Shown here one piece after another: positions 21,661-53,338 of a stretch of DNA of 64,000 nt. Source of the stretch: Marsupella aquatica. Taxonomy: Eukaryota; Plantae; Marchantiophyta. The notes beneath the pieces were generated by a model, which was given only the letters and a program-made list of their open reading frames with translations, made no database searches and was not told where the DNA came from. The DNA is taken from NCBI GenBank assembly GCA_973895155.1, contig OZ316894.1:6968234-7032233 (forward strand), in the 5' to 3' direction. The translations under genes and the position numbers were made by a program. The stretch's first letter is position 1; every line of letters starts with the position of its first letter.

Positions 21661-21969
21661 AACACGATTTCGGACCGACCGAGAAGTGTGACACACTTCT
21701 TGTTTAGCCCGATTCCATTTTTTAAGGCAATGCAATCTCCAATAAAACTGCCAAAAAATCAAAAAAACATGAGTTGCCTACATTGCATCGCCGCGGGAAT
21801 GCAGGGAGCGATACGTGCATCGGGTTTTACATTCAGTCTGTGAAAAAGTCCGAACTGCGAGTAACTTGGTCCAAAACCACGTAATCGAGGGTCGACCACG
21901 CACTAACCCGGGTTAAGGCGGAAAGTAACCATGGTTAAGGGGGAAAGTTACCATGGTTAGAGCATCCCC

Positions 21970-21977
21970 TATATAAA
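21970..21977 (+). promoter_or_regulatory. Candidate TATA box reading into the Sola-like element from the left end
   Basis: CCCCTATATAAAGAG upstream of the plus-strand cargo ORFs; motif only. Confidence 0.3.
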
Positions 21978-22276
21978 GAGGAGCGGGTTGCCCATAAAAA
22001 GTTTATTTTTGCCAGAGCGAACAACACCTCACTCAAAGTGAATATTGAACTCCTATCAAGTCTTGCATTCCTCCCAAGAGACTTGACTCTTTCTCCAGAG
22101 AACCCAATAAATTTATCGGAACTACCATTCCAGTCAAGTATCATCCATGTAAGGTTGACTTGTCATTTGGTGTCAATGTCCTGATCCGAGAGGACTGCGA
22201 TAAATTTATCGCAGTTTGCATTCCTCTGTTGCATTCCTTTGATCCAGTGCGCATTCATTCCATAAATTATATTCAA

Positions 22277-22500
22277 AGTCCAATAAATTTATCGGAGTAT
22301 CCATTCCTATCATTGATTGAAGATTGCTTGAGACTCCGATAAATTTATCGGAGTTTCCATTCCTATGATTGATTGAAGATTGCCTGAGACTTCGATAAAT
22401 TTATCAAAGTTTCCATTCCTGTGATTGATTGAAGATTGCTTGAGACTCCGATAAATTTATCGGAGTTTCCATTCCTATGATTGATTGAAGATTGCTTGAG
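22277..22500. repeat. 4 x 56-bp tandem repeat, each unit carrying the palindrome CCGATAAATTTATCGG or a variant
   Basis: Palindrome starts at 22280, 22336, 22392 and 22448, a 56-bp period. Confidence 0.9.
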
Positions 22501-23243
22501 TGTGTGAGGGAGTCATGTCTTCAAGATGAATGCGAGGTGCGATAAAGTTATCGCACCCTCCTGTGAGACTCATCTTCCTTTGTTTTGTTTGGAGACTCAT
22601 CTTCCTCTATGATGTCGCAGTGCTGCAAGGTTTAGGAGGCACAACGAAAGGTCGATTGCACTTGGTGGATCAAAGGTATAGTGACAAATAGCTGTCTTAA
22701 TTCAAAATCGTGTCAAACGTGCATGCCGGTTGTACAAGAAACTCATGCAACGTAAAGTTCTCCCCATTGGTGTAGGAGTGTTGTGGATGGGTGGTACTGA
22801 TCCCGGAGATAGGCAGAATCCTCTCCGGATTGAGTTCTGCGGAATGAATGGTGCAGGAGTTCCAATCCGTTCGAGGTTGATGTTAATAGCGTGTCTCAAT
22901 TCTTTGGAGTTTTCTTGTAACTATTGTTGTCGTCGTCTTGACAACAAGTACCATAAATTGGCATACTTATGTTGTCAGATTTGGAACGAGGACCCTTGGG
23001 TCAACCTTTCATGATGAGTGTTGTGACCTTCACATTGTGGCGCATTTTGTAAGGACACATTTAAGTAAACAAGTCCTACCCATGTGCAGCGAATACAATA
23101 TGGTCCGAGTCCTAATCTTTAAACTATCATGCAGGGTTGGTACTGTGGATATCTTCGATTACACTTGGTGATGAAGGTACTTTTATTGGTGGTTTTGGTA
23201 GCTCTGCTTCATTGCTGCGTCGGAGAACCTAATCGTTGCTAAG

Positions 23244-23759
23244 ATGGCATCTGTATTAGCCCACGAGCGTAGGAAATATATTCAAGGAAAAGTGCCTAGT
23301 GTGAAATGTGGAAGTCTGTTGAATGGACTTCCTGATCAACTTGTTGAATCTCACATTTGGCCTCTCTTGGCGTTGTCTTGCACACAAGATGAACACCTTG
23401 GCCTTGACCTAAAACTTTTACCCGAAGAACGACTGGCTCGAATGAGAACAATCATTTGTCTTGGAGCCATCTTGAAGAAATGGAACCATCTTGTTGTTGG
23501 TACACAATTTTGGGCTTTACTGAAATATGCAGTCTATGAGATTAATGACATAAACCAAATGCTCGCAAGCATTCCTAATGCCGACCTTCTCTCAAACCTA
23601 CATATTGCTAGGGTCTTCCGAGAGGAAACTCATTTCCTCCCTCCCATAGATATGCTTGGGTGCTTCTCGTATGACCGATTAGATGCGTTTCTTAGAGTTT
23701 GGGTGAATCTTGGAGAAAGCGGGAAGCGGACAATTCTTGCATGGCATGGACAAGTCTGA
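23244..23759 (+). CDS. F-box-like protein (transposon cargo), 171 aa
   Basis: LLNGLPDQLVESHIWPLL...IICLGAILKKWNHLV fits the F-box consensus LP-E-L-I...L-VCK-W with an insertion; intact ATG-to-stop ORF. Confidence 0.55.
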   Translation: MASVLAHERRKYIQGKVPSVKCGSLLNGLPDQLVESHIWPLLALSCTQDEHLGLDLKLLPEERLARMRTIICLGAILKKWNHLVVGTQFWALLKYAVYEINDINQMLASIPNADLLSNLHIARVFREETHFLPPIDMLGCFSYDRLDAFLRVWVNLGESGKRTILAWHGQV

Positions 23760-24003
23760 GCGGATGAGGCATTGCTGCAAACATCCGATAAATTTATCGC
23801 ACTCCTCATTCCTCTGGTCGATTTAGTAGTCAATTGTTTTGGGTGCTCTAAGGTTTGCTCAAGAAGAGCTTGTAAAAAAACACTTTGAATGTAAATGACC
23901 CTGCCTCGCCTGACTTCGGGTTGTGTGGTCCAGAGTGTAGTTTTTTGCGCCTCTACGGATGATTATGTTGGGTATTTACTCTTACGTCTAGGTTAGGTAT
24001 GAC

Positions 24004-24127
24004 GTGGTTGGTACAACAACGCGGGTTGGTACAACTACGTGGTTAGGTACAACTACGTGATTAGGTACAACTATGTGGTTAGGTACAACTACGTGATTAG
24101 GTACAACTATGTGGTTAGGTACAACTA
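24004..24127 (+). repeat. ~7 x 18-bp tandem repeat in the U3 region of LTR A (also ~30078-30201)
   Basis: Unit GTGGTTAGGTACAACTAC and variants. Confidence 0.85.
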
Positions 24128-25540
24128 AGTTGCACACTATATCATAAGAGGCATGTGTGCTTGGAGAGGTAGAACCAAGGCTCATTGTTATGGAGCCACT
24201 TGAGAGATAGGGAGAGCTTACACTGTGGAGACTCGGTATAGCCGACGGGCTTAGAGTTCAGTAAAGCTCTCTTGTGTGTTCCCGTGGACGTAGCCTCAAG
24301 GAGGTGAACCACGTATCTCTTGTGTCGACTATTGTGCGTTGGATGGTTCATGGGCTTGCCGTTGCGATCGTCGTCTATGCTCAACAATTGGTATCAGAGC
24401 ATGCTTGGGAGGTGACGTTTGTTCGTGACGGGATTTCATGATGGTTTTTCCAGCGTTGAGTGTTGGTGGATTTTCCAGAGTTCCATCGCATGGAACTTGG
24501 AGTTTATGGGCTCAACGGATAGATCAGGGCAAGAGCTTTCTAACGGTGTGAAGAAATCGTTGAACGGAGCTCGTGGTGCAGAGAGATCTAAGTTTTTGTC
24601 GTTCTGGATTTTGTGAAGAAAGTTGGCAATCGACTCAGAGGGAGAAGCGTCAAGTGTTTTGACTCAACGGAGAGATTGAGGCAAGACGATTGTTTTTGAG
24701 TCCGGGATTGGCTCTTTGATGCAAAGAGGAAGGCTAAGCAAAATCAATTACCTTGTTGGACTTGGTGACGACACCAAGTGCAATTGATCAACATTCGTTG
24801 TTGACAAGGTACCATTTTTTTCTCTTTGAAAAACTGATTCGAAATTGGCTATGGCAATTGAGAGAAATCTGTCATCTTTACCAATTTTTTTCTCCCTCGT
24901 TCTTTCCTCGTTTTGGGTGCTTCTTATATCGATCTTCATCACCTCGGAGTCTAGTTTCCAAATCTGAAATCGGATCTTGATTTAGTCAAAACTCGAGTGA
25001 GATATCTTGCGTTTGGTGTCGAGGGGTACATTCTGCCGTGTGTATTTTCTGCGCGCGCGACCAGATTTCGACGACGAAGGGTGGTAGGGGGTTTTGGGGG
25101 TTCGAGGACACATGTCAGCCCCTCGATTGTTCTTCCAAAATTCCCACAGGGCCTGTACAAGGGTCATAGAATATTCCAAAAAACCAGAGAGCTATTTTTT
25201 GACCGTCCGACAAAGATTTCATCCGCCGAACGGTAACTTTTTTGGTTATTTTTTGGCGAGGTCGTAGCCATTGAAGTTGGCAATGCAGCGCACCAATCAC
25301 ATCGCAATTCCGACAACGGGTTGTACTTGGTATTTCGGTTATTCCCTGAGGTGGTCAAAACGGGGGAGTTTCCCAAGGTTTTACCCACCTCGACCAAAAT
25401 TTGAATAACTTTTCCGTCAAATTTCGATTTTGATTTCGGTTTTCAGTATTGGACTCCTAGCTTTGTGGGCTACGCGGCGGTGTTGAGTTTCGAGTTTTTT
25501 GAGAAGTTGTGAAAAACAACATTTTTTGTGACTTTCTCAT

Positions 25541-28500
25541 ATGAGTGATTCGGAGGAGTTTTTCGAAGACGTGGAACTTGAAGCACGAGGGTCACCGCGG
25601 AGGTTTCAGGGGCAGAGAGAGGAGCAGGAGGAAGAGCACGTGACACCGATACCATCACCGGTGCGGCGTGTGGTGGAGGAAGCAGTACTACTACCGGAGC
25701 TCACGGTAAAGAAGAAGATGGGGACTTTCAAGCTTGGGGGACCCAAGTATGAAGTGACAAAGTATGATGGGCGCTCTGACTACTTGCTATGGGAGAAGCA
25801 GGTGAAGGGAGTGCTTTATGCGTCAGGGATGGGCCAACTGCTGAGCCCTCGTGAAGACGATGTTGATGAGAAACAATGGGACCGCATGCAGGAGCAGGGA
25901 GTGTGGTGTGTTACACTCTATCTCATGCCTCCCATCATCAAGCAGTTGGGTGCACATAAGGATTGCATGTCCTTGTTTGCGGAATTGCAGAGCAAGTATC
26001 ACCGCAAGGAGTTGTCGAACCGGCTCTACACTTCCTACAAACTGATGAGTTTCAGGATGAAGGAATCTGGTATGAAGTTGCAAGACCATGTGGATGCTTT
26101 CAACGACATGGTTGTTGACTTGGAAAACCTTGGGGAGACTTTGAATGATGAGACAAAGGCTCTGCAGCTTCTTAGTTCATTGTCTCCATCTTACCAGTCC
26201 CTATCACGAGTGTTGTTGCATCGTGATAGGGATACCATTTCATAGAATGACGTGGTAAGTTCTCTGCTTAGTGATGATCTTCAGCAGAAGATGCACATCA
26301 CGTCACAGCCTTCATCATCTGGTGCTGCCCTCAATGTTAACCGTGGGAGGAGTATGCAGCGACCAACTGGGGACCGTAGAACCCAGTTTAGATCTAAATC
26401 CAGATCTAAGTCCAAGGGTAAATCCCCTCAGAGGAGGCAGGTGACATGTTGGAAGTGCAACCAAGTTGAACACTTCAAGCAAGACTGTAAGGGAAAGGCA
26501 GCGGAAACTTCATCGGCAAATGTGGCTAGGGCTGATGGAGAAGCTGATTTACTCAATGATGAGTATGTTTTATGAAGCCGGGGGTATGCCCTGTGCACGT
26601 CATCTAGGAGAGCAGATGATGTGTGGATTCTTGATTGTGCTTGCTCTTTTCATATTTGTTACATTCGTGAGTTTTTCAGTTCTTACTCTATTTCAAACGG
26701 TTTAGTTCTGATGGGAAATGATCACTCCTGTCAAATTGAGGGAATTGGGTCTGTGAAGATTCAAATGTTTGATGGCGCTGTGCGCACAGTATCCGGAGTC
26801 AGGTATGTACCTGGCATGCGTAAGAATCTGATTTCACTCGGTGTGTTGGATTCAAATGGTCATCAATGGAGCGTTATTGATGGTGAACTTCAAGTCAGGT
26901 CGGGAGAGACAGTGATTTTGAAGGGGAGTAGACAAAAGAATTTGTATGTGTTACAGGGCAATACTGTATGTGGAGAGGCCAATGTAACCAAGTCTCACGA
27001 GGAGATGACTCAACTGTGGCATTCACGGCTAGGCCACATGAGTGAGAAGGGTTTGGCTATCTTACGGAAGAATGGACTCATTTCTGATTTGCAATCTTGT
27101 AAATTAGAGTTTTGTGAGCATTGCATTCTTGGAAAGCAGCATCGTCGTGCTTTTGGTGTTGGAACTCATCGTTCCAAAGCGGTTCTTGAGTACATACATA
27201 GTGACGTGTGGGGTCCATCCCCGACTCCCTCACACTCTGGAAAGTTGTACTATGTATCATTTATTGATGATTACTCAAGATTTTGTGTGGATTTATTTCA
27301 TGACGCATAAGTCTGATGTCTTGTCCATTTTTAAGAAGTGGAAGGCCCAGGTGGAGAATCAGACTGGAAACACGATCAAGTGTTTGGATACAAGGGTGAA
27401 GAGTCTGAGGTCAGACAACGGCGGGGAGTACACTTCAATGGAATTTGAAGAGTGTTGTTCAGAACAGGGGATAACTCGCCATCTCACCACAGTTTATACT
27501 CCGCAGCAGAATGGTGTCGCTGAGAGGCTCAATCGGACACTGTTGGAGCGGTCACGGAGTATGTTGAGCCAATCAGGTTTACCACAAGAATTTTGGGCAG
27601 AAGCTGTCAATACCGCAGCTTATTTGGTAAATCTTTCTCCTTCTAGTGCTATCAATTTCAAAACGCCGTTTGAGATGCGCTATAAGCGGCAAGCAGACTA
27701 TCATGGCTTGGTAGTTTTTGGAAGTGATGCATATGCTCTCACACCAAAGCAGAATAGGACCAAGTTGGATCCTACCTCCAGGAAATGTGTTTTTCTTGGG
27801 TACCAGAGTGGTGTGAAAGCCTATAGGCTATGGGATCCTATTGCCTGTAAGCTCGTTGTCAGTAGGGATGTTTCCTTCAATGAATCCAGATTATTGAAGG
27901 AGGGGGAGAATACTCAGGTCTCCCGTACTGACAAAGGAAAATCTCCTATCCCGGATCTCGTTGAGGGGGAGATTGGTTATGAGGTGCATGACCGGAGAGA
28001 AGGAGTTGCTCCAATTATGGAGCTGGTTCCTGTGCCAGAGGAACCAGAGGAGTTTGTTGATGCTGGTGAGCAGCAAGTGGATGCTGTTGAGCTTCAAATT
28101 GTACCAGCACACGCAGATCAACCGGAGTCATCGGCTAGAAGAACATCTGGTCGCACTGTACGCGCTCCACCAAGGTATGGACAGTGGGTTGATTCATCTC
28201 AACTGCAAGAGGATGATTTTACAGCTGATGATGAGGGTGATGCGTTAATTTTGGAAGAAGGAGAACCTTCTTCATTTCATGAGGCAAGTGCTTCAAAGGA
28301 GAAGCAGAAGTGGACTGCAGCAATGCAAACGGAGATGCAGTCACTAAAGGACAACAAAACTTGGGAGCTTGTTAAGCTGCCTAAGGGTCAGCAAGTGGTG
28401 GACAGCAAGTGGATTTACAAGCTAAAGGATAATTCCATAGGAGGTGGATCGAAGGTCTACAAGGCTAGATTGGTAGCAAAGGGATTCACACAAGATAAAG

Positions 28501-29849
28501 GTGTGGATTACAATGAGGTCTTCTCACCAGTTGCTAAGTACTCTACAATACGACTATTGTGTGTACTTGTTGTAATGTTTGGTCTGCTCCTAGATCAGAT
28601 GGATGTTGTCACAGCTTTCCTCTATGGCACATTGGAAGAGGTGATCTTCATGAGACAACCGCTAGGTTTTGTGAAGAGAGGACAGGAGGAATTGGTTTGC
28701 AGATTGTTGAAATCCTTGTATGGGTTGAAGCAATCACCAAGACAGTGGAACAAGCGGTTTGACGATTGGATTCGGTCACAAGGTTTTCACAGAAGTGTAT
28801 TTGACCCTTGTGTGTATTTGAAACCGGTGAAGAATGTTGTCTTTGGGTTCATTGTTTTAGTACTTTATGTGGATGACATGCTAATTGCAGCCAAGGATAG
28901 GTCTGAGATTGTTAAGCTCAAGGCACTGCTTAGTGCAGAGTTTAAGATGAAGGACTTAGGGCCAGCTAAGAGGATTTTGGGTATGGAGATCACTAGGGAC
29001 TTGGAGGCTGGCAAGCTATGGTTGATGCAGAGCAGCTATGCGAGGAAGGTAATTGCAAGGTTCAACATGGAGAATAGCAAGCCAGTAAGTACCCCGTTGG
29101 CTCCACACTTCAAGTTATCATCAGCGTTCTGTCCTACGGATGACACAGAGAAGGGGTTGATGTCAAAGGTTCCATATGACAAGGCAGTGGGGAGTCTCAT
29201 GTATTTGATGACTTGCACTAGACCTGATCTTGCCATGGCTATGGGCAAGGTGAGCAGGTACATGTCGAATCCAGGGAAGGTACACTGGGAAGCAGTGAAG
29301 TGGATTATCAGGTACTTGAAGGGTACCGTGGATCATGGTCTTTTATTTGATGCGAATGCAAAGAATGCTAGATCATTGATTGGCTATGTAGATTCTGACT
29401 ATGGACAAGATTTGGACCGAAGAAGATCAACAACAGGATACGTGTTCACACTTGGCGGTGGATGCATAAGTTGGAGGTCTACTTTGCAGAAGTGTATTGC
29501 TCAGTCTACTACAGAAGCGGAGTATGTTGCAGCTGCGGAAGCAGCAAAGGAAGCGATTTGGTTGGATAGACTTATCACTGAAATGGGATTGCCACAGGGG
29601 AATGTGAAGCTCCATTGTGATAGTCAAAGTGCGCTCCACCTTGCTGTGAACCAGGTGATGGACAGCAGAGTGAAGCACATTGACGTCAGGTACCATTTTA
29701 TCAGGCAGGCTGTGTCTGATAATTTGTTTGAGCTAGTCAAGATTGATGGTAAACTCAACCCGGCTGACGCATTTACCAAAGTGATTCCTTTGGAGAGTTT
29801 CTCTAGACACCGTGACGTATTGCAGGTTTTGCAATTGCATCACAAGTAG
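25541..29849 (+). pseudogene. gag-pol: Copia A gag-pol
   Basis: Zn knuckle CWKCNQVEHFKQDC, protease WILDCACSFH, GAG-pre-integrase LWHSRLGH, integrase LRSDNGGEY, RT LYVDDML, RNase H KHIDVRYHF. TAG at 26243, TGA at 26573, frameshift near 27283. Confidence 0.93.
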
Positions 29850-30589
29850 AGTTTTCTTAAACATTCATTGTAATTACTGATATATGCTCTTCCTCATTCC
29901 TATGTATTAGGCTACGGCTTAGTTCTGGTTTGCTCTAGTTAGAGAGGGAAACCGGTTTGGTTCTGTCCAGAACTTCCCGCTGAGGGATCATATACATTGG
30001 CAGTATTACTCTCCCCTAGACCAGAGTCAAGGGGAAGATTGTTGGGTATTTACTCTTACGTCTAGGTTAGGTATGACGTGGTTGGTACAACAACGTGGGT
30101 TGGTACAACTACGTGGTTAGGTACAACTACGTGATTAGGTACAACTATGTGGTTAGGTACAACTACGTGATTAGGTACAACTATGTGGTTAGGTACAACT
30201 AAGTTGCACACTATATCATAAGAGGCATGTGTGCTTGGAGAGGTAGAACCAAGGCTCATTGTTATGGAGCCACTTGAGAGATAGGGAGAGCTTACACTGT
30301 GGAGACTCGGTATAGCCGACGGGCTTAGAGTTCAGTAAAGCTCTCTTGTGTGTTCCCGTGGACGTAGCCTCAAGGAGGTGAACCACGTATCTCTTGTGTC
30401 GACTATTGTGCGTTGGATGGTTCATGGGCTTGCCGTTGCGATCGTCGTCTATGCTCAACAGATTAGCTGACAAGTGCATTGGCTTCACAGCCCGTTATAC
30501 AAGGTACTATAAAGTTGAATGAAACTTGTAGAATTGTAATGAGTATGTTCTCCAAAATGTATTCCTGATTTCTATTCGCTGATCAGGTC

Positions 30590-31066
30590 ATGCTCGAGCG
30601 ACGCATTTTTGTACCCTTCGTGGATCCTCCGGAATGGGGGAATGGCGCCCTGATGGACCAGCTAAGGAAGCTGGATGAATCACTAATTTTAAAGATTTTC
30701 AAGCTGGTAGCAAAAGCATTTTATAATAACGCATATCACTTCTACGTAGACCAGGTAGGGGGAGAAATTTATATCCGGTGGGATAGATATGCTGCATTTC
30801 CTAGAAGTATTATCCTGCTTTTTCTTAAAACCGATGTAGTAAAACGTTTTATACTGCACTGCTGTCATGTTGTGAAGGGCAATCCTGCCTATGAACCAGA
30901 ATTCTATGCCCACAACAGACGTAGAGCATTCGATGAGATTCAGGATGTGATTGACCAGTTGGACAATCCTCTTGCTACCGAGTTTTTGATTGACACTGGT
31001 GGGAAGTTATATTCGTATAGGACTCGTCAACTCCCCCTAGGCCTCTTTGTCCATTATTTAGGTTAA
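30590..31066 (+). CDS. Hypothetical 158-aa protein (Sola-like element cargo)
   Basis: Clean ATG ORF with globular-like composition inside the element; no family recognised. Confidence 0.45.
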   Translation: MLERRIFVPFVDPPEWGNGALMDQLRKLDESLILKIFKLVAKAFYNNAYHFYVDQVGGEIYIRWDRYAAFPRSIILLFLKTDVVKRFILHCCHVVKGNPAYEPEFYAHNRRRAFDEIQDVIDQLDNPLATEFLIDTGGKLYSYRTRQLPLGLFVHYLG

Positions 31067-31462
31067 CTTATGTACCTTGTTTATGGACAAATGTCCTTGA
31101 CAATGGTGAGATGTGTCAGTATTGCACAAATGCCTGTTGTGATGTTCCGTCACGCCGCTATTCAGTAGCTGTAGTTAATCTTGAGACCGGTGCCACAGAT
31201 TTTCATTGGTTGTGGGCCTATGATCATAGGATCACTCATATACCCCAATGGCCCAAGAAGCTAATCTCTCGCTTTGTTGTAGCGCAATTTGATCTTGGGT
31301 GGGATGATTGATTAGGCACATTATCACATGTACACTCGGTCGTCAATTTAAAGAAGGCTCACTTTTTGTTTGGACCACTTTTGCGATAATTTTATCGGTG
31401 TTGGTCTCATTTTCAAATGTTGACTGTACGTACGATAATGTAATCTCGACCGTCAATTTACA

Positions 31463-31758
31463 CTTGGGGGTTTCACTTCCACAAAAATGGCATATCACGT
31501 GCAACGAAGAATAGGGTCATTTTATTGGTTCTAAGGGAAGACTTAAGAATTTTTGTAGAAGAACAATAGGGTCTTTTAAATTCAATTTTGAGACTTATAA
31601 GAACATTAGGGTCTTTTTAATCCAATTTTTAGAATATTCCAAGAATATTCCAACTTTATAGGGGTTAAAAAATAATGTTTTTTCTTACATTTTAGGGGGT
31701 CCGAGGCCTAAAAACGTCGCAGGCGATGGGGAGGTCCCCATATAGTGAGACCCCCGAG
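31463..31758. mobile_element. MITE (same family as 5091-5396) nested in the Sola-like element
   Basis: Termini CTTGGGGG...CCCCCGAG; TSD AATTTACA / AATTTATA; reverse complement aligns by eye with 5091-5396 along its length. Confidence 0.75.
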
Positions 31759-32346
31759 AATTTATATCGTGCTCATATTTTTTTGCGATAATTTTATCGG
31801 AGTTAGTATCGCTCGTGGAATGACCTAATGCTTGTACGTGAATGAGGACTTTCTGAATTCATTGTATCGATGTTTGCATGCCAGTTTTTGCTTTTTGGGT
31901 TTGTCAGAGCAATAAATTTATCGCTTCTTGCATTCAGATTTGCAGACTTTGTCATCATGGGTCCTAGTGGGAAGAGTGGATCTGCCGAGGCTGAAAGTCT
32001 CATGACAAGCCTCACGAACGCGATTTGGACAAGCGAAGACATTTGTGAAGAGGTCAAGTTCATCAAGAAACCGTGATTCTTCCGCGACGCCAGGTTACAA
32101 TCCAAGGATATGGCAGACTGTGAGTCTCCTATCCTTTGGGTCCAGATGCAAAAACCCGCAAAGGTTACTCTCTCGTTTGGCCCCGTTGTTGGTGTGGCAA
32201 TCTGTGAGTACTTGATTAGCCAAGGAGAGGCAAAAGTGTTGAAAGAGGGTCTGAGTTTCTTGACAATGTGTGGAGGCAAGGGATTCACCTCTATCATTGT
32301 CACCATGGAGAACTTTCTTGAGAAATCCCTTGAGAGTTACCCTGAA

Positions 32347-35300: not shown

Positions 35301-38300
35301 GATTCTAGATAGTGCATGTACTTTTCACATTTGCTCTAGAAGAGATTGTTTCAGTTCTTACACGGTTTCCAACGGGTCAGTGTTGATGAGAAATGGAATC
35401 CCATGTCAAGTTGTTGGACTTGGATCTGTAAGATTTCAGATATTTGATGGTGTTGTGAGAACATTGAGGAATGTGAGACATATTCCCAGCATGATGAAAA
35501 ATCTCATTTCACTTGGAGTTTTAGAGACAAATGGCCATCAGTGGAGTTCTGCTAATGGTGTCCTTCAGGTTTTAACTAGTACTAAAGTTGTATTGAAGGG
35601 AAAGAGACATTGCAATCTATACATTATGGAGGGCAGTGTAGTCTATGATGAAGCCAATGTAACCTTATCTCATGAGGAGACGGCCCGGCTGTGGCACTTC
35701 CGTTTGGGCCACATGAGTGAAAAAGGTTTGGTTATTCTTCAGAAGAAAGGATTAGTTTCTAATTTGCAATCTTGTAAGTTGGAATTTTGTGAGCACTGTG
35801 TGCTAGGGAAGCAGCACAGGAAACCCTTCAGAGTTGGAACTCACACCAACAAGGAGGTACTTGAGTATGTACATAGTGATGTGTGGGGTCTCGCCCCTAC
35901 TCCCTCACATTCTGGATGGTTATACTATGTCACGTTCATTGACGATTACTCAAGGTATGTGTGGATATACTTTCTACACAATAAGTCTGATGTTTTTGCC
36001 ACTTTTAAGGAGTGGAAAGCCCAAGTTGAAAATCAGACTGGTAATAAGGTGAGATATCTTTGATCGGATAATGGCGGTGCATACAGTTCTGGTGAATTTG
36101 GAACGTATTGTAAGGAGCAGGGGATTACCCGCCATCTCACAACAAGCTATACTCCTCAGCAGAATGGTGTTTCTGAGAGACTCAACCGAACACTATTGGA
36201 CTGCTCGAGGAGTATGTTGAGTCAATCATGCTTACCACATGAGTTTTGGGCTGAAGCTGTCAACATTGTAGCTTATTTGGTAAATTTTTCTCCATCCAGT
36301 TCTATTGGATTCAAGGCGCCATTTGAAATGAGGTACGTGCGTCTAGCAGATTACTCACATCTGAGGATTTTTGGATGTGATGCTTATGTGCTTACACCTT
36401 CCCAGCTTCGATCCAAGCTGGAGTCCAAGTCAAAGAAGTGCATTTTCCTTGGTTATCAGAAAGGTGTGAAGGGTTATAGGTTATGGGATCCAGTAACCTG
36501 TAAGCTAATTGTCAATAGAGATATGTCTTTTAATGAATCCAGATCATCAAAGGAGGGGGAGAGTTCTCAGGACTCCCATACTGACAAGGGGAAATCTCCC
36601 ATCCCGGACCGGGTTGAGGGGGAGATTAGTCATGATGTAGTTCATGACAGGAGAGATGGAGAAGCTCCGGGCTTGGAGCTGGTTCCTATGATGGAACAAG
36701 AGGAGCAAATTGTTGCTGGGGTACCTCAAATTCAACCAGCAGCAGCAACAGATCAGCCTGAGTCATCTATTAGAAGAACTTCCAATCGTTCTACTAGAGC
36801 TCCTACCAGGTATGGTCAATGGGCAAACTCATCTAAGCTAGATGATATTGACATTGCACCTGATGAAGATGATATGGCTTTGATCTTGGAAGAAGGAGAG
36901 CCTTCTTTGTATAGTGAGGTTTGTGCTTCAGAGCAGAAGCATGAGTGGAATGCAGCAATGCAGAGGGAGTTGCAATCTTTGAGTGACAACAAGACATGGA
37001 AGCTGATGGAGCTTCCAAGAGGTCAACAAGTGGTGGACAGCAAGTGGATTTACAAGTTGAAGGACAGTCCTTCAGAGGGTGGAGATAAGATCTACAAGGC
37101 AAGGCTTGTTGCCTAGGGGTTCACTCAGGAGAAAGGAGTGGATTACAATGAGGTCTTTTCACCGGTGGCTAAGTATTCCACAATTCGGATCTTGTGTCAG
37201 CTTGTTGTGTTTTTTAATCCGGTGATGGATCAGATGGATGTTGTTACTGCTTTTCTCTATGGCAACTTGGAAGAGATGATCTTCATGAGACAGCCACTAG
37301 GCTTTATGAAGAAGGGCCAAGAGAACTTAGTTTGCAGATTGCTCAAATCCTTGTATGGATTGAAGCAGTCTCCTAGACAGTGGAACAAGCGGTTTGATGA
37401 TTTCATGCTTGCTCAAGGTTTTACAAGGATGGTGTATGATCCTTGCGTGTATACGAAATCAGTCAAGCATGATGTATTTGGTTTCATCATTCTGGTGATC
37501 TATGTGGATGACATGCTAATTGTGGCTAAAGATCAATCTGAGGTTGACAGTCTCAAGGCGAAATTGAGCGCTGAATTCAGGATGAAGGATCTTGGTAAGG
37601 CCAAGAGGATCTTAGGGATGGAGATTTTTAGGAACTCTAAGACTGGACAGTTGTGCTTGAGTCAAGGCCAGTATGCGAGGAAAGTACTTGCACGATTCAA
37701 CATGGAGAACTGTAAGCCAGTGAGTATTCCTTTAGCTTCACATTTCAAGTTATCATCGGCTTTCTCTCCTACGGATGCTGTGGAGAAAGGTTTGATGGCT
37801 AAGATTGCTTATGAGAAGGCAGTAGGCAGTCTAATGTATTTGATGACTTGTACTAGGCCTGACTTGGCCCTAGCGATGGGCAAGGTTAGCAGATTCATGT
37901 CAAATCCAGGGAAGGTACATTGGGAAGCTGTGAAATGGATTCTCAGGTATGTGAAGGGAACATAGGACTATGGATTACTATTTGATAACAGATCAAATAG
38001 AACGTTAGTTGGCTATGTAGATTCTGACTATGAAGGCTGTCTGGATACAAGGAGATCTACAACTGGGTTTGTATACACTCTTGGAGGAGGATGTATCAGT
38101 TGGAAATCTACCTTGCAGAAGTGCATATCTCAGTCTACTACAGAAGCAGAGTATGTTGCAGCAGCAAAAGCAGCAAAGGAAGCAATTTGGTTGGATAAGT
38201 TGATCGTGGAGATGGGTTTAGAGCATGGAAAAATGACTATAAACTATGATAGTCAAAGTGCTCTTCACTTGGCTGCTAACCAGTTGATGGATAGCAGGGT

Positions 38301-39020
38301 GAAGCACATTGATATCAGGTACCATTTTATCAGGCAAACAATGTCTGATAAAACTTTTGAGCTAGTCAAGATTGATGGAAAGCTCAATCCCGCTGATGCT
38401 TTTACCAAAGTGATTCCTTTGGAGAGTTTCTCAAGACACCGTGCTACTTTGTAGGTTTTGCAGTTGTAGTGCAAGTAGAGTTATTTAGCAATGTGTGACT
38501 GTTTGTATATGGATTACTCATTCCAGTTAGGCTACGGCTTAGTTCTAGTTAACCCTTAGTTAACCCTTGTGGTTTTTAGGGGGAGACCTGGTTTGGTGAT
38601 TGTCTAGAACTTCCCGCTGAGGATTCCATATGGTAGCATTTAGTCCAGTCCCCAACACAAGAGTCAAGGGGGAGTTTGTTAGATATTGCTCTAGTCTTGT
38701 GACTCTTGTGCTAACCACAGTTAGGCTAACTCGGGTTAGGACCTAGCTAAGGTTAGCGGTAGTGCTGTTGTGCATATAGCCAGGGCTGATGCCAGACCCT
38801 GGTGGAACTTAGGCTCATTGTTACGGAGCTAGTTGAGAGATAGGGAGAGCTTGTGTTGTGGATGCTTGGTATGGTCGGTCGGCCTAGAGTGCAGTAAAGC
38901 TCTTGTGTGTTCCCGTGGACGTAGCCTCATGTGGAGGTGAACCACGTATCTCTCTGTGTTGACTATTGTGCGTTGGATGGTTCATGGGCTTGCCGTTGCG
39001 AATGTCGTCTATGCTCAGCA
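32347..39020 (+). mobile_element. Full-length Ty1/copia LTR retrotransposon B (older)
   Basis: 344-bp LTRs 32347-32690 and 38677-39020 (8 mismatches seen, all transitions), TSD CTGAA, mutated PBS TGATATCAGAGC, PPT AAGGGGGAG. Confidence 0.97.
34197..38454 (+). pseudogene. gag-pol: Copia B gag-pol
   Basis: CWNCGKPDHMKRDC, WILDSACTFH, LWHFRLGH, YVDDML, KHIDIRYHF; stops at 35248, 36061, 37114 and 37963, frameshift near 35100. Confidence 0.93.
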
Positions 39021-40419
39021 CTGAAGATGCGGTTGTCGCGGAAGTTAGGTCAGCAAAAGTAATGAATCTTATGGGCCCAGCTTGAGTGTGCCAGTTTGTC
39101 CAAGATCTGGTTCTGGAGTCAGCGTTAAGAGAAAGAGAATAAGCTGGAGTTTATCCACAGCCCCGGAAGGAGTGGAAGCCCCGATCGATATGGAGCCTCC
39201 GATGCTTGATGAGCGTTTGCCTCATTCAGATATACAAGCCGAGGTTTGATCGGTAAGTGCTACCAAACTTTGATTTTCTATTGACAAAAGAGGATTCCGA
39301 TAAAAATCTCGCTGTTTCTTTTGCAATCTAATTTCAAATGGCATTTTCTAGATTGATGAAGAGGAGGAGACTGCTCTTTCAATGTATGAGACTGACGCCA
39401 TCAAAGCGGAGGTCAGTCTGCTGATGCAACGAAGGGTTCAAACGACAACTGTCCTCTTGCATGTCGACAATTTAATTTTTGATGAAGCTGGAGAGAAGTC
39501 AACTTTGATCAGACCAGTGGACAAATTGCATGTGGAGAATATCAAGATTCTTCTAAGGAAAAACCCCACTAACTTCAGCGCACCGTTTGTGCTGTGTGTG
39601 GATCCGGAGGATTGTCCCACAATCGAGGATTGGGACATTCTAAAGTCCAGAGTATGGAAGTATAGAATTATTGGAGGAAATCATGGTGCTTGGGCAAAGG
39701 CCGAGTTGTATAACATGTATGGGAAGCAGATTTATGGTGAGCTGGAAGCTTGGGTATACGCAGGACTTACCAAGTCGGAGGTCCGGAAGTTGGGCTTCCA
39801 GCACAATTATGACCAGGAGTATAGGAAGAACATGACTCAAATCGATAGAGTTCGTGCGTGCCACAATATCTTTGTTGAAATGGATGTAGGATCAAACAAG
39901 GATGTTCGCGAAGCTTGTTGTCAGGAATGTATGCTGCAATACACTCCCGGTGTTTGTGACAGCATGGCCAAACATGACCCAACATTCCAGATTGCTTTTC
40001 GAACGGGTGAAATTTGGGATCTTCAGGAGAAAGTTTTCCAGATGTGGGAGAAGGGGACTGTCTTGGATCGTGGCAACAACAAATGCAAAGGGAAAGGTTA
40101 AACCTTTAACGCTAAAAGAGATTAAAATGAATAGACTTGCAGGTGACCCAATTTAAATACTTTTCGAGGTCTTCAAGGACAGTCAACTAAGGAGCATGTT
40201 AAGCGGCTCTTGAATAGGGTCATTGGGAAAGTGATCACCTTGGATCAAATGCACAAGGAAGGGGAAAAGTTGAAAAAACTTTCCAAGGTGAAGAAATTAT
40301 TCTTGCAAATATCTGGGCAGCCCGACTGGGCAACGTGCAGAGAAATGTTTCCAAATGAGACAGATGTTTCCGTCCTGGGAACATGGGCAGAGAAGTTGAG
40401 CGAAGCGGTAAGCACCCGT

Positions 40420-40575
40420 CTCTCCCCGAGATTTTTATCGGCCTTGCCATTCCATTAGTAGATTTTTGCATTCCTCGTTCCATTCAAAAATCATTGCGAG
40501 ATTTTTATCGGCCTTGCCATTCCATCAGTACATTTTTGCATAACTCGTTTCATTCCCGAGATTTTTAACGACTTT
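40420..40575. repeat. Intronic tandem repeat (2-3 units, 60-70 bp) carrying palindrome variant CCGAGATTTTTATCGG
   Basis: Variant copies at 40426, 40496 and 40556 within the MTase-gene intron. Confidence 0.75.
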
Positions 40576-42189
40576 CGTATTCGTTAAGCAATTTCATTCT
40601 GATTGGAATTATGTGCGACCTTTGATACAGCTGAAGATTGGGTCGAAACGGAAAAATAAAGTTGTTCCGCCTGTGCAATATAATTTGGCGGGGGAGGTTA
40701 TTGTTCCCTCCGCTGACATCCCGTATGTGTTCAAGAATTTTGTGCTTGCTACAATTGATCGGTACAACCGGCTCCAGGCGCTAAGCGAGGACGCACGAGA
40801 AGCCGCGGAGCAAAATGGAAAAATGCTGACGGAGATTCTTTCTCTTACTATCTCCATGTTGGGGATGTTCGAATTTTGGATACTTTTGTGGAGGCAAAAC
40901 CTTACACTCTTACCGTCGCCGACATTCCGTATGGTTTTAATGCACTTGGTTCGGAGTTTGATGAAGTGTCCTTCCCGGAAAAGGACGTTGTAGATATGGT
41001 GAGAAGTTTTTTGAACATGACAGCTCCTAAGCAGTGGAGGTTTGTTGTGATCCATTCATTACAGCAAACAAATATGGTCATGTCTGCGCTCGAGATTGTG
41101 TGCAACTGTGGGGTTGAGTCTGGAATTTGGGAGAAGACCAACATTCATGAGCGTCCCGCCGGTGCTCGATTGGCGTGGGGTTTTCAAAAACTGGTCGATG
41201 GGATTCTACAGCGAGGAAGGCATCCGGAACATGAACATGTACAATTTCCAACCGGATGAGTCTCGCATCAATATCATCAAGGTTCCATGTGTAACCAAAA
41301 AGTCTGTTGATCCGTTGGGCTATGTTGTGAACCCATACCAAAAGCCTGTTGGTTTGGGTGCTTGGTTCGTTACTCATTTCTCGGAGAAAAATGACTGGGT
41401 TATGGATCTTTGCTGCGGAACCGGATCCATGTTAGCAGCGGCTCTTCTCAATTCTCGCCAGGGTTGTGCGGTCGATAAAAGTGCTGCGCAGATTGATTTT
41501 GTGAGACATCGGATTATGACTCTAGAGTCAAACTGGAATTTATATGATGAAGCACAGATTGAAGGGCAAGGCGGCGAAGGTCTAGAGATTCAACCACCGA
41601 TTAGAGGCCAATTGGGAACATTGGGGACTTTGACTTTCACTGTTGAAGTCGTGAAGGAGGTCGAGAATGAAGAAGAAGCCGAAGAACCTCCCAGAATGCC
41701 TAACGAGGATGATCTCAATGACATGTTACTGGATTAGGAAATTGTTATCTGGTTGTATGATAGTTAGGTTAGGTTAGTTTAGGTTATGTTAGATTATGTC
41801 AGTCCCACTTCTCAATATTCAGAGAATGGAGTGTGATAAATTTATCGCAATTATGTTTGAACCCGATAAATTTATCGGACATTGCATTATACTCCCTTGT
41901 TTGTCATGGTGTTCTAGCTGGGGACTTATCGGACTTTGCATTCCACGCTCTAGCTATTCCACTCCCTTATTTGTCACGATGTTCTAGTTGGGGGAATGGA
42001 GTTGTCGATAATATTATCGAAGTTTGCATTCCACGCTCTAGCTAGTTAGTCATTACAATCAATTAAAAAAAAGATATAATTATAGCTTCGGAGAACAACA
42101 TACTTAGTCCCAGATGTTCACGACTGCGACCATCCTCATGGGAATGATAACCAGCTTAACGATAACCATTATAACTTAAAACCTTTACA

Positions 42190-45100
42190 CTAGCTTCTAC
42201 TATCAACGACTACAGTGTCCATCATTGCATTTTGAATGATTCGTCTTGTTTGTACAGGGAGAGTACTATTTGCCAATAACGCAAAGTTATACGCATAAAC
42301 TGTAGTTTCTGCTAGGGACAGTTCATCCTCCAGTACTTTGTTAGACGAAGCCTCTTTCTCCGGATAATATCTGCCTTCAATTGCAGACTCCTCTTCCGAA
42401 TCCATTGCATACCAAGTGATTTTAATTTGCTCGGGGATGTTGTTAATTTTTGTGAGAATCTCAGTCACTTTTGCCATCCAGAATGGTCTTCCCTTTGGAT
42501 CCTGATGGGCTGCTACACATATCATTGAAAATTTAGTATTCACCTCTAGATCCTTGAAGTCTTCAATTTCCGTGACTTTTCTCCAACTTCCGGAATACAT
42601 GACTGTCCTCACACCCGCTATTTTATCAACCAAGATAGGTTCCATTGCTGCTTTCATAGGATTGGTCGTAGGTTCTCTCTGTACATTTACCTTGGGCCAA
42701 CTCCAATCAAAACTCCATTGTGCAGGTTCAGGTGGTGCTGAATCACTTCTTTTTGTTTGTCCAAAAAACGACCCCACCATAGCCGATCTTTGTCGTCAAA
42801 GTAATTGAATCCATCTTCAATTGCTCTCCGATACTTTTGAAGAGTCAAAAAATGATTTTGCGCCGCCCGCTCGTCTTGTTCCTCAATACCATTCTCTTGA
42901 TCATCATTGTCTCCTGTTGCTCCCGTGGCCGACTTCAATGCAATTTGTGGTGCGACCCACATTCCAGATGAAGGAATGTATCGAACAAATTCCACGGGCT
43001 CCCCCAATCTGTTGTCATGGAAAGATGTTTGGCATGGAAGACAGATAGAGCACTCCCATCTTCGAGTACTCTGGTAATCCAAAATTGTTTCTGAGCACTT
43101 ATGTCGTGGAGACTACACAGAACTTGACCATCCATATCCTTGTCATTTGCTTGATCCTTGTCAGACACAAATTTTTTGAAATCGGCAACCTCATCGACAA
43201 AAAATATTTTTGCCGTAGGATTGTAGGATTCCTCTATGATTGCGGAAAGAGTGTCCAATCGAAAAGCTTTTTGCTTGTTCAATTTTGAAGAAAACTTGCT
43301 AAACATTTGATCAATTTGGTCATGGGTGTGCCCAACCAACAGAAAACCAACCTTTATTTTTTGGAAAACACCTATCTCCACCAACATGTTCAAATATGCC
43401 ATAAGATATTTATTCTTGTTTTTCCGAGCAGTGTTATCAAGCTGGAGGTAAAGCACTGGAGGGAGCGGACCTTCCCAGGTATTCAGAATATGCTGAATAA
43501 CGTGGATGGTCAGGTTGCTATCATTGTGAATATTTGGATAGTTCAAAAAAATATTTGAACTCAATTGTTTGTTGAAGATCAAACAACCCACTATGTGTAC
43601 AGGGATAAAATACTTCTCATCCATATTCTTTGGACACCGAATGAAATGAGGTAACTCTCTCTTCTTTTGATCCATTCCATCAATACAGATGCCCAAATAT
43701 TTCTCTGGACTCTTGTAACATTTGCTCCGGTGCTTTGCTAACTTCTCCCTCTCCACTGCCTTCCGATGTTTGTTTAGCAATGTTGAGAATTTTCCTACAA
43801 TAATAAAAACGTTTAGAACTTTGCTGGCCTGACAGCGATAAATTTATTGGGTTCAGTATTCAAACACTTGATTTGATAACCATAATGTTAAACCGTGACA
43901 CCGATAAATTTATCGGGATAAGTATTCAAACAATATATTCACACATTACCAAAGAAGAAGCATGGGAATACTCAACCCGATAAAATTATCGGGGATAAGT
44001 ATTCAAACTGTTCAAACGATATATTCACACACATTACCAAAGAAGAAGCATGGAAATACTCAACCCGATAAAATTATCGGGAGTAACACACGGGTTTAGA
44101 AACTTACTCTTTTCTACTTCGAGTGTTGCCTTATCACGAAGTGCTTTGAATTCAGTACACGGGGCGTAAGTGGAGAAACGACTCCTTTTGGGGATGCGCA
44201 CGCGAGGAAACTCTTTGTTCCAAATGCGAACAAACCACAAATATGTCACGCCTTGTTCTTGGCGCATTAGAGTTTCAGACTGGAAGGCGTCAAAAACTTC
44301 TGTTTTTGTCCAATTGTCAGGTAAATGAAAGATATCCTTGTTGGGGAGACTCTCTACATTTGTGGTAAAAAAATCATCCAGCCACTGAACAAGACCAAGA
44401 TGTGCGGTCGATTTTTCTCTACAAAATGTATCGATCTGTATCCAAGAAAACATGTTCTTCAAGATTTTTTGGAGACGATTATTTCCTAGGAAAAATAATT
44501 TCTTAAAACCACTCCGACAAAAGGATCTACCGCTAACTGAGTAACCACTTGCACCGACATGCCCACCCTTCACACATCCTCTTAGAAGTACGTTCTTCTC
44601 TTGGTAGGATAGCCCATAGTAATATGTGCGTTGTTTCATCACATCCAGCAGACCCAAATTCCTCAGACAAAAATTATCACAACATGGATACTTATAAATT
44701 TCTTTCATTTTGTTTCTATTCAATTTATCATTTATCACATTGTCTTTCCTAGTAATTCGATCTCTATCTTTTTTACTAGGCTCATTTGACTTCTCTATAG
44801 ACTGAAATCCGATGAGAACATTGGCATTTTCCTCTCCTTTTGGTACCTTGCGAATAGGTGCATCACTCTCTGCTGAGCTACCATCCTCCACAGATCTCCT
44901 TGACGCATTTAGAGGGGCACTGAAAAGGTGACTAAAACTATTCCCTTCTACAGCTCCTTCTAAACATTCAGACACAACTTGTGCTATGATATCGGATTCT
45001 CTATCTCCTTCCTGATCTTTGTCCTCTGATCCACTTGACTCATCTGAAAACACAATTGGACTCCGTGGCTCTCTATACATAACCCGAACACCACTAAGAC

Positions 45101-45653
45101 CTCTCCTCGACACTTGGAGCCTGGAACCAATCACAGTCCGCCCTGGAGAACTTGGAGAATCTGGAACTCTGAACGGTGAACTATTCACACGTGCAGTATC
45201 AACAACTCCGCGAGCTGCAGGAAAATTGAGCACTTGTTGACCATGATTCCCACGGACCATTCGAGAAAGGGCCAAGTCTGGACTCGCAATCCAATTCCCT
45301 CGGTTGCTCGCACGTCCAGTCCAGGCAATGCAAAGACCGATCGCCATATCGGTCTTTGTATTTCTACCTCCTGATTCTCACCCGGAGACTGAAAAATTTG
45401 TCGTTGAATGTGGCGACTTGAATGCTGAGTGCAATACGCGTATCGGTCGCCGGATAGCCTCTCCATAACCCGGGATGGATGGCCTGAAGCGACGTCTTGG
45501 ACCTAAACCTGGGATTGTAATTTTCTCATTCCTTGGCGATGGAATGCTCAAGAGACGATGCTTCTCAGGTTTACTAGGCGACACATAGTAAGAACTGGGC
45601 TCAGGACCAGAACTTGCATCAGAATCTGAATTAGCGTTAGAAAATTTGGGCAC
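42190..45653 (-). pseudogene. Sola-like DDD transposase (exon ~45650-44108, intron 44107-43795, exon 43794-42190 with frameshifts)
   Basis: Cys-rich N-part CCDNFC...GRSFCRSGF; catalytic-like CIDGMDQ, LYLQLDNTARKNKN and FLLVGHTHDQIDQMFS. Splice EK|RKFSTLL is in frame; in-frame TGA at 45378. Confidence 0.82.
43835..44085. repeat. Intronic repeats in the transposase gene carrying 4 palindrome copies
   Basis: Palindromes at 43835, 43901, 43977 and 44065; duplicated ATATTCACAC(AC)ATTACCAAAGAAGAAGCATGG.AATACTCAACCCGATAAAATTATCGGG. Confidence 0.8.
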
Positions 45654-45909
45654 TATTTGTGTGAGAGAGGTAGAGCTTTAAGTATGCACTTGGCAAACAG
45701 CGAGCGACAACATTAGGAGAGGATTCAACTGAACTTGAAGGTGAATCTATGTCTGATTGAGACATGGCTATCTAAGACACTATGGGGCTTTGCATTCCTC
45801 CCTCAATCAGGGAAAACAAATGGCTCAACCGACAAAATGTTGCTCCAAGAACACAACTCCCGAAACTCTACTCTAGATAATGACGCCAAAAACTTATCGG
45901 CGGTGACCC

Positions 45910-45916
45910 TTTTATA
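45910..45916 (-). promoter_or_regulatory. Candidate TATA box for the Sola-like transposase
   Basis: CACTATAAAAGG on the minus strand ~260 bp upstream of the transposase ORF; motif only. Confidence 0.3.
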
Positions 45917-46823
45917 GTGTCTGTTGAGGGGTTGGCCCACGTGGCCACTTTTGATTCGCCGTCTCGCTAAACGACAAAATAGCAGAGAAGGGTATATTTC
46001 TTGGATTTCCAATTTGATTCTTACACGTGCATCATGGAGAAATTATGTAGTTTTGAAATTTAAGCGATAAATCTATCTCATGTTGGTATTGCAAAAAGTG
46101 TTTCCTTCATATGGAAAGTTGCAATTTTGAAATTGCAGCGATAAATCTATTTGATGTTGGTATTGCAAAAAGTGTTTTCTTAATATGGATAGTTGCAATT
46201 TTGAAATTTAACCGATGAACCAAAGGATCTTAGTATTGTCGGCAAGTATTTTTGCCGTTCGAAGTTGCCACGATAATTTTATCGGATTGTGCATTGTTGT
46301 TGAGACAACGGCATGTTGACTATGCATATATGTGGTTACTATGGTCAATTGCGGAGGTAACTGAAAGGTAAATTTGACAAACTGTGCGGTAATTTCTTAT
46401 CGACTGTGATGTAAAATAGTTACGATAAATAACCAAAAACTGGGGAAATTGAGATTCGGTCGGAACTTTCATGGTTGAAATCCGAAGTCCGATACAGGTA
46501 TCGGACTTTGTTTGAAAAGTGGATATAGATTCTAGATAAGACGTTTCATATATCTTCGGAGAGCGTGAATATGAGGTTCTGGCAAACATTTTTTGGATCT
46601 AATTTTTCCTTGATAAATTGAATGTTTGTGACCATTAATTTCAGTGGTTCGGACCATTCCTGAATTTCTTGATTCAATCCAAACTCCGATATAGATTACA
46701 TTATTTCCCCAAAAACCTGTTTTAAATAAAAAAATTCACCAATTTTGTGAGATTCGGCGGAAAATGAAAACACACTTCTCATTTGCGGAAATAGTTCTCG
46801 TTCAGTCGGAAATTGTGTTTGAG

Positions 46824-52643: not shown

Positions 52644-53338
52644 TGAATTTCTCTTACCGGTTCGTGCTATGAACCCTTCAGATGAGACTTGAAAATGCCT
52701 AGTTCTTTGCGCAATTCAGACAGCGTTTAAGTGAATACTAACTCACCCTGCAAAAATACCTGAACATTGGAAGCGCATCGTGAGGGAATGGTTTGTAATG
52801 CAAACACTAACCAGATGCGCATGGACCTCGAATGTCGGCTGCCAAAACGTTGATTTGCAGAGTATGCAATAGGGCTTGCACTATATCCTCAAAAAGGGTC
52901 GCGCGGGAAGGAATGTTCTGGACTCCAATTGCCTTCTTAGGTATTGCATCCCTTCAACTCGTACCCCTGGAATACAGTCCCTTTTGCATACATCGTGACG
53001 GAGTGTAAATCCAGGCGACCCGAGAGGGGGATTTAGCGTCAGTGCAATCGGGGGTGCGGGCTCGGGACGGGTTTTCATTTCAATAGGGACAGTTTGGGGC
53101 ATGCTTTGGGGACAGGTGCGGGAGTGCCATGGCAGATAAAGGACATGCTGCCCGAATAGTGTACGGACTGCCCAAAACGTGAAGTGATGTAACCGCGACA
53201 TTCGACACTGTAATACCCTGTAAACCCTCCCTCTCGCCTCATTAATGTGCATCGATATTTGGAATCGCGCTGAATATCAATATTGTCGTCTCATAAACAG
53301 ACAAGCCTGCAGCGAATTTGGAGAGCTGTCTAAGAACA

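Follow-up and report, generated by a model that had tools for sequence, protein, structure and literature searches.

Organization of the element

A DNA transposon occupies most of the middle of a 64,000-nt stretch of contig OZ316894.1 from Marsupella aquatica (the window; all coordinates are positions in it). Its transposase gene lies on the minus strand and is convergent with a plus-strand gene of three putative exons, whose product combines a ParB-like domain with a DNA amino-methyltransferase (hereafter the methylase gene), and both genes are accompanied by many copies of a symmetric site, CGAK-N6-MTCG-N8-ATT, in the non-coding DNA of the element (Table 1). This module is real, recurs in related loci and is under selection, and it is a variant of a combination noted previously in another lineage. 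The copy of the transposon in the window is dead, as both large genes are broken by frameshifts and stops.

Table 1. Features of the transposon and of the retrotransposons nested in it, in order of position
Feature	Position	Strand	Remarks
Left target site duplication (TSD), TGAG	21657..21660	.	Interrupted open reading frame (ORF) in frame across insertion point
Left 25-bp terminal inverted repeat (TIR), starts AACAC	21661..21685	+	21/25 identical to right end
Left cluster of CGAK-N6-MTCG site	21809..22553	.	Includes 56-bp tandem array, 4 copies, 22279-22500
171-aa open ORF	23244..23759	+	Likeness to an F-box seen by eye only; homolog searches empty
Copia long terminal repeat (LTR) element 1	23966..30460	+	LTR differences 1/421 bases; TSD GATTA; stops in coding region
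158-aa open ORF	30590..31066	+	No family match; then 66-aa ORF 31111-31311
Putative exon 1, first part: conserved N-terminal domain	31957..32346	+	One stop; interrupted by Copia 2; 33% identity to L001 and L003, same position
Copia LTR element 2	32347..39020	+	LTR differences 7/341 bases; TSD CTGAA; stops in coding region
Putative exon 1, second part	39026..39252	+	Broken; GT at 39253
Putative intron 1, 99 bp	from GT at 39253		One site (39298)
Putative exon 2: ParB/Srx-like domain (R...GGNH...HN) and helical, possibly helix-turn-helix (HTH)-like region	39352..40407	+	4 stops near 40100-40150
Putative intron 2	40408..40630	+	Same position in 5 relatives; 3 sites (2 exact, 1 mismatched)
Putative exon 3: beta-class amino-methyltransferase (DIPY ... 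QKP ... DLCCGTG)	40631..41737	+	Frameshifts near 40820 and 41188
Spacer separating the convergent genes, 452 bp	41738..42189	.	Contains sites; 320-473 bp in four linked relatives
DUF7869 DDD-type transposase (IDGMDQ, QLDN, GHTHDQID)	42190..45377	-	Frameshifts near 43000 and 42726; start not fixed
Right non-coding region	45885..46503	.	Further sites and 74-bp tandem repeat
Right 25-bp TIR, finishes GTGTT	46795..46819	-	21/25 identical to left end
Right TSD, TGAG	46820..46823	.

An earlier annotation made from the letters alone (the sequence-only reading) had described one element bounded by TIRs and TSDs, and this is borne out by the inverted repeats and by the TGAG on both sides. If the element is excised in silico together with one TGAG, the ORF on the left joins, in frame and across a single stop, a Cys/His motif that we take to be SWIM-like. 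This restoration of the interrupted ORF fixes both the boundaries and the 4-bp duplication without recourse to the TIRs. The element is thus a genuine unit, as that reading had it, but two nested Copia retrotransposons, which account for 13.2 of 25.2 kb, had gone unmentioned; the element proper measures ~12 kb after their subtraction. Both Copias are later arrivals, because each has near-identical LTRs and a 5-bp duplication of its own. The LTRs of Copia 1 contain an 18-bp tandem repeat in 7 copies (24002-24127 and 30076-30201), which those of Copia 2 lack, and a solo-LTR-like copy at 6160-6390 is 80-87% alike to the LTRs of both.

The minus-strand gene matches DUF7869 (E 6e-50) and includes three acidic motifs of the DDD type, confirming the convergent DDD transposase of the sequence-only reading. 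A putative intron at ~43795-44107 contains 4 of the repeated sites. DUF7869 presumably corresponds to the Sola1 clade. The termini of the element, AACAC...GTGTT, have the first 3/5 bases in common with those of Sola1-1_Ec32 from Ectocarpus in the one comparison made, and the TSD length is equal (for Sola1-1_Ec32, the supplement of PMC12477816 lists AACCG-CGGTT as termini, a TSD of 4 bp and Sola1-1_PPa_tp as best match). The element likely represents a Sola1-type cut-and-paste transposon family.

The ParB-like/methylase gene

The gene convergent with the transposase had been read as a spliced gene with a ParB-like and a methyltransferase part. The methyltransferase stands, the ParB-like assignment is more tentative, and the three-exon structure is predicted from GT/AG sites whose positions agree with those in relatives.

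Exon 3 has 11 relatives with 56-69% identity. Its match to Pfam N6_N4_Mtase (E 4e-5) is below the cut-off in the frameshifted window copy, whereas the relative P0002 is above it, and a model built from the exon-3 relatives matches CcrM (best, E 9e-13), M.BceJIV, M.RsrI and the rotifer enzyme N4CMT. Motif IV (D-[IV]-P-Y), QKP and the S-adenosylmethionine (SAM)-binding loop are kept in 11/11 close relatives, in the beta-class order with IV before I. Motif IV reads D-[IVFLA]-P-[YH] in every family member possessing the motif, and SPPY is absent. By motif order and fold, exon 3 is a beta-class DNA amino-methyltransferase with predicted catalytic activity. In four read runs, the majority of the contig depth is without the frameshifts at 41188 and 42726, with run-specific exceptions (X5 at 42726, 19 of 12,633; about half in X1 at 42726 and in X6 at 41188). 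Because most of this depth, which is not a measure of copy number and cannot rank genes, is without both frameshifts, other copies lack them.

A HMMER search with exon 2 yielded 119 relatives with a conserved R, GGxH, HN pattern, while a word-based search with the same exon gave no match among longer proteins. Its neighbours in the ESM Atlas are DUF3723 (0.94) and a cluster in which 35% of the members carry ParB_N (0.93). The Pfam family HTH_ParB matches L003, one of the metagenome loci described below, under the cut-off, and two canonical ParB proteins were not scored by a plain hidden Markov model of the family. The predicted structure of the domain has a predicted local distance difference test (pLDDT) value of 43, and fold searches on this low-confidence model were uninformative. 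From its conserved pattern and Atlas neighbours, the domain is likely, rather than demonstrably, ParB-like.

The N-terminal domain of exon 1 is found upstream in L001 and L003 too, and in the relative protein P0103 a single ORF runs from the end of this domain into the beginning of the ParB-like domain. The small ORF 31957-32346, which had been counted among 2-3 cargo ORFs, likely constitutes the first exon of the methylase gene. The ORF of 171 aa had been called an F-box-like protein, a label left without support by searches that gave no match in Pfam or PDB at E up to 10, no PHROG match and no homolog. The exon-1 domain itself has no Pfam match, and the N-termini of P0033 and P0039 gave no score against its profile. 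Its nearest named ESM Atlas clusters are SRA-type readers of 5-methylcytosine (5mC) (0.86-0.89, recognition 1816), a lead only. An SRA identity is unsupported by hhalign against 13 DUF3427 tails, in which the domain scored 11.2, and shuffles up to 26, with the window row partly out of frame. Sequence searches of the PDB returned nothing significant.

Recurrent linkage and purifying selection

A metagenome scan revealed 8 methylase loci; one of them (L008, a 42-codon match) was left out of the counts, giving 7. A convergent transposase follows the methylase in 4/7 loci (L002, L003, L005, and L006). The ranking by identity agrees for both genes over these 4 linked loci, with L002-L006 closest and the window farthest. 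The seven loci represent distinct element lineages, though not distinct hosts, since they come from one record series, and all are too short to contain TIRs.

The closest pair of methylases, L004-L005, has a nonsynonymous rate (dN) of 0.068 and a synonymous rate (dS) of 0.74 (dN/dS 0.09). In the remaining 14/15 pairs synonymous sites are near saturation, with proportions of synonymous differences (pS) of 0.72-0.84 against nonsynonymous ones (pN) of 0.13-0.26. For the transposase, the pair L002-L006 gives dN 0.087 and dS 1.04 (dN/dS 0.08). The methylase is under purifying selection comparable to that on the transposase. Neither one-off capture nor a methylase free of selection, which the sequence-only reading had named as ways in which it might fail, is upheld.

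These data bear directly on the idea that the methylase is a captured passenger and the palindromic sites by-products of local tandem duplication. The broken window copy and the sites that stand in tandem arrays accord with it, but the linkage in 4 diverged loci, the dN/dS of ~0.09, the same site in 6/6 close relatives with mostly saturated synonymous positions, and the absence of two window frameshifts from most contig depth in four runs do not. This idea is very improbable and largely refuted.

The repeated site

The sequence-only reading had counted more than 20 copies of a 16-bp palindrome in the element. The count holds, with 20 copies at <=3 mismatches and 27 at <=4, every one within the element and 0 elsewhere in the window. 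The palindrome is one form of the wider site CGAK-N6-MTCG-N8-ATT, which is present in the window and in L001-L006 (6/6 close relatives). The exact core, CGA[GT]-N6-[AC]TCG, is present in 19 copies in the ~12-kb element and in 11, 6, 20, 5, 6 and 3 copies in L001-L006, whereas shuffled sequences gave means of 0.11-0.35 with a maximum of 2. This excess of more than twentyfold per locus is somewhat flattered because the pattern was defined after viewing the same loci. Outside the element the core occurs once in 38.8 kb of the window, and in the Copias not at all.

Across the window and L001-L006, 68/70 cores are non-coding, although coding sequence makes up 66% of the DNA. ATT stands 8 bases beyond the core in 63/70 cores, on both sides in 20, vs. 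4% by chance. The six-base spacer is uniform within a lineage and differs among lineages, being A/T-only in the window, of GTTTGG type in L003 and AC-rich in the other five. Both genes carry sites in their introns, whose positions are conserved, and further sites occupy the intergenic spacer and the regions close to either end. The outermost stand 148 bp from one end and 330 bp from the other, and the TIRs are without the core. Persistence of a non-coding site beyond the saturation of synonymous positions would point to selection for contact with a protein. The sequence-only reading had pointed to the VANDAL transposons of Arabidopsis for comparison, and amplification of the sites in non-coding DNA fits that likeness.

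The protein might also be foreign to the element, the site being bound by a host transcription factor, or the site might act as an RNA or single-stranded DNA hairpin that aids splicing or expression. The arms can pair over ~16 bases around a 6-base loop in L001, L004, and L005, and sites do lie in introns and untranslated regions. However, pairing in the middle of the arms drops to 18-36/70 while CGA and ATT keep their constant spacing, 43/63 tailed sites have the tail on one side only, sites occur in both orientations and also between genes, and the host DNA of the window has no site cluster. That the site is read by no protein of the element seems distinctly unlikely.

A distant methylase relative, L007:367-1480 (38-40%), contains in its intron a different 16-bp palindrome and no CGAK core, and L007 may be another lineage with another site.

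Candidate reader of the site and proposed function

We lean modestly towards a reading in which the accessory ParB-like/amino-methyltransferase binds and amino-methylates the site of its own element, giving it a private self-mark. The accessory protein, rather than the transposase, would read the sites in the non-coding DNA. It would probably do so as a dimer, in view of the two-fold symmetry of the core and of the dimers that beta-class amino-methyltransferases commonly form. The mark would be N6-methyladenine (6mA) rather than N4-methylcytosine (4mC), most simply on the two symmetric CGA adenines, because motif IV begins with Asp. Either the mark or the bound protein could keep the element expressed or time its transposition. 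We do not favor a CTP-driven sliding clamp like that of ParB, although it is possible, because the arginine of the GxxR P-motif of ParB CTPase clamps is replaced by S/T/G in 45/61 matches (residue after GxH: S 25, T 11, G 9, R 2).

A more ambitious version, which we regard as unlikely, is a read-write enzyme in which SRA-like 5mC sensing, ParB-like loading on a ~38-bp symmetric site and beta-class 6mA writing would be combined. Each element lineage would then have a private adenine-methylation code, in which the spacer would drift much as restriction-modification specificities do. The spread of the module would have taken in charophytes, liverworts, ferns, Ginkgo, some animals, and an amoebozoan.

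Several observations weigh against self-marking by the accessory protein. The exon-2 pattern is collinear with the ParB motifs in a 95-column profile alignment with a probability of only 0.34% (E 0.18), barely above 30 shuffles, and N6_N4_Mtase matches 8/47 scanned ParB-like members, many of the 47 being partial gene calls. Among the loci without a linked transposase, L001 and L004 end 305-360 bp past the methylase stop and the distant L007 has no transposase in 506 bp; the close loci L001-L006 are 2-5 kb long, show no TIRs and belong to one metagenome record series. With regard to the site, L007 has a single core, within coding sequence, the coding limits used for core positions were drawn by hand, and the sites are frequently tandem copies, so the counts are not independent. 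Finally, the transposase co-travels with the sites just as the methylase does, which leaves the two indistinguishable as reader, and plant transposases can be sequence-specific activators, as described in the accessible part of 10.64898/2026.08.24.746577.

Under a second explanation the repeated site is an internal enhancer or activator site to which the transposase itself binds, and the methylase gene is kept for some other job, for instance to mark ends or target DNA, or to act on host DNA with low specificity. The common inheritance of sites and transposase, the position of the outermost sites relative to the ends, and the report that the AtMu1 transposase activates cognate copies (10.64898/2026.08.24.746577, seen in part) are consistent with it. 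However, TIRs without the core and sites spread across introns of both genes, not just near the ends, are not what it would predict, and the selection on the methylase is left unexplained. The transposase is thus an improbable, though serious, candidate for the reader.

In a third explanation the accessory protein would act like VANC, countering host silencing by 5mC or chromatin through occupancy or recruitment, and the methylase fold would be mainly a DNA-binding module. This would suit the VANDAL-like layout, the drift of the spacer per lineage and the CG in each half-site, in which 9/22 single-mismatch rows (some double-counted) are CG-to-CA/TG changes, as 5mC decay would give; the SRA-type clusters near exon 1 lend it a lead only. 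Conversely, the catalytic and SAM-binding motifs are kept in 11/11 close relatives, the profile alignment gave no score above the shuffles for the SRA lead, and the same cargo is reported from Ectocarpus, where 5mC is negligible according to the portion of PMC12477816 available to us. A purely anti-5mC role is weakened by the Ectocarpus case, and we hold a VANC-like function to be distinctly unlikely. Between the two roles that the sequence-only reading had offered, self-marking is therefore the safer and anti-silencing the less safe.

Relation to known systems

The sequence-only reading had presented the combination as a candidate new system, which would fail if such cargo was already described, and it is not new. 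Sola1-1_Ec32, a 21.5-kb element of Ectocarpus, carries a gene for a 1104-aa protein with ParB-like and N4/N6 methyltransferase parts on the strand opposite its transposase, as the element in the window and 4/7 loci do, and self-modification by this accessory protein has already been proposed (PMC12477816, in the part available). The two differ in host (a brown alga vs. a likely land plant), in TIRs (282 bp and imperfect vs. 25 bp) and in length (21.5 kb vs. ~12 kb), and the likeness drawn here is one of description. A land-plant host for the window element is suggested by the Copias, the cytochrome P450 gene of two exons in the window and the named relatives of the ParB-like domain. In the accessible text of PMC12477816 no target site or selection test is reported for Sola1-1_Ec32, and the strings 'palindrom', '4mC', and '6mA' are absent from its main text. 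The literature covered, from which most subscription journals and Repbase fall outside, contained no land-plant case and no target site. The present analysis adds a family that likely belongs to land plants, evidence that selection acts on it, and a candidate for the target site.

The published idea of self-modification (PMC12477816, as far as available) thereby gains a defined candidate site, so that a direct experiment becomes possible. If the proposal is true, a eukaryotic DNA transposon would run a sequence-specific amino-methylation system, which would be a candidate for an orthogonal epigenetic writer that comes with natural variants of its specificity. Non-flowering plants, in which such enzymes are described as few in the part of PMC4738411 consulted, would then have a possible local source of 6mA or 4mC.

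VANDALs are Mutator-type transposons, and in this they differ from the window element with its DUF7869 transposase and 4-bp TSD. The targets of VANC21 in VANDAL21 are short motifs in introns, intergenic and terminal non-coding DNA, often in tandem and differing between families (PMC5735166, partial text). VANDAL/VANC and the window family are thus alike in having an accessory gene and an element-specific motif amplified in non-coding DNA. On the other hand, VANC motifs are of 8-9 bases, asymmetric and lead to loss of 5mC in the text available, whereas the window site is bipartite and symmetric and is accompanied by a protein with a methyltransferase fold.

Among prokaryotic systems, fusions of a ParB fold to N6_N4_Mtase are common in phages, according to the part of 10.1101/2025.10.10.680097 at hand. 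CcrM, M.BceJIV, and M.RsrI are like exon 3 in having motif IV before I and the same fold, with identity of ~20% or less. Unlike these bacterial and phage enzymes, the window gene is spliced, lacks the P-motif arginine and has no close prokaryotic or viral relative in the scans made. Among eukaryotic enzymes, Marchantia DN4MT1 and bdelloid N4CMT are likewise beta-class amino-methyltransferases of bacterial origin, and N4CMT is among the fold matches. They are, however, SPPY enzymes that make 4mC and are host genes in the descriptions available, whereas the window family has D-x-P-Y and a ParB-like partner and resides within a transposon. No link of the window methylase to either was found in these partial descriptions. 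The second family of 'chlorophyte-type Dam', with ParB-HTH, is similar in being a eukaryotic N6A methyltransferase with an N-terminal ParB-type module, but it is placed in Group 2 and reported from only chlorophytes and chytrids, whereas the window enzyme is circularly permuted (beta class); nor does the window enzyme match any of the six Group-1 clades (PMC4738411, as described in the portion available).

Distribution of relatives

Names were looked up for 20 of the 119 ParB-like hits, which include Chara braunii (6), Riccia sorocarpa (3), Adiantum nelumboides (2), Ginkgo (1), Haliotis (1), Ptychodera (1), and Clastostelium (1), with 5 unnamed; Ectocarpus is not among these 20. The 6/20 from Chara suggest an expansion of the family there, and one Chara gene model (P0025, 1825 aa) contains two tandem ParB-like/methylase units. 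In a tree with long branches and two outgroups only, 16 close rows are grouped with support of 99/99. Methylase patterns had no relative in viral contigs and a 42-codon match only in prokaryote genomes, and the ParB-like profile matched 0/151 bacterial genomes of one phylum in a scan run without positive control.

In four abalone species (P0067, P0142-P0144) the ParB-like domain is part of a 543-548-aa protein that is >90% conserved, has a Tudor-like match at its C terminus and matches no methylase, possibly a domesticated copy. The proteins of the hemichordate Ptychodera (P0135) and the amoebozoan Clastostelium (P0113) have a C-terminal methylase-like region with apparently degenerate motifs.

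Neighboring sequences

The insertion point of the transposon lies within an outer element with 311-bp inverted repeats (18638-18948 / 52969-53277, 96% alike), so that nesting has three levels, from the outer inverted-repeat element through the element studied here to the two Copias. The ORF split by the insertion is a broken transposase-like ORF of the outer element, with no match in Pfam. From its motifs, we assume it to be Mutator-like. Within the studied element, ~125 bp at 31494-31620 are 80% alike, in inverted orientation, to 5240-5365 outside it, and may be a small inserted repeat or a captured fragment.

A cytochrome P450 gene of two exons lies at 8210-10091 (-) (Pfam p450, E 2e-66 and 4e-31); inverted repeats of 79-115 bp at 298-412 / 11754-11864 enclose it, and it is possibly the cargo of another TIR element. 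A fold-back element of 994 bp at 14791-15784 has 337-bp arms that are 95% complementary, resembles a miniature inverted-repeat transposable element and has CCCTGAG-like flanks on both sides. Two long ORFs of low complexity, 58579-60003 (+) and 61671-62918 (+), match no family, and the second contains an 81-bp tandem repeat in 4 copies.

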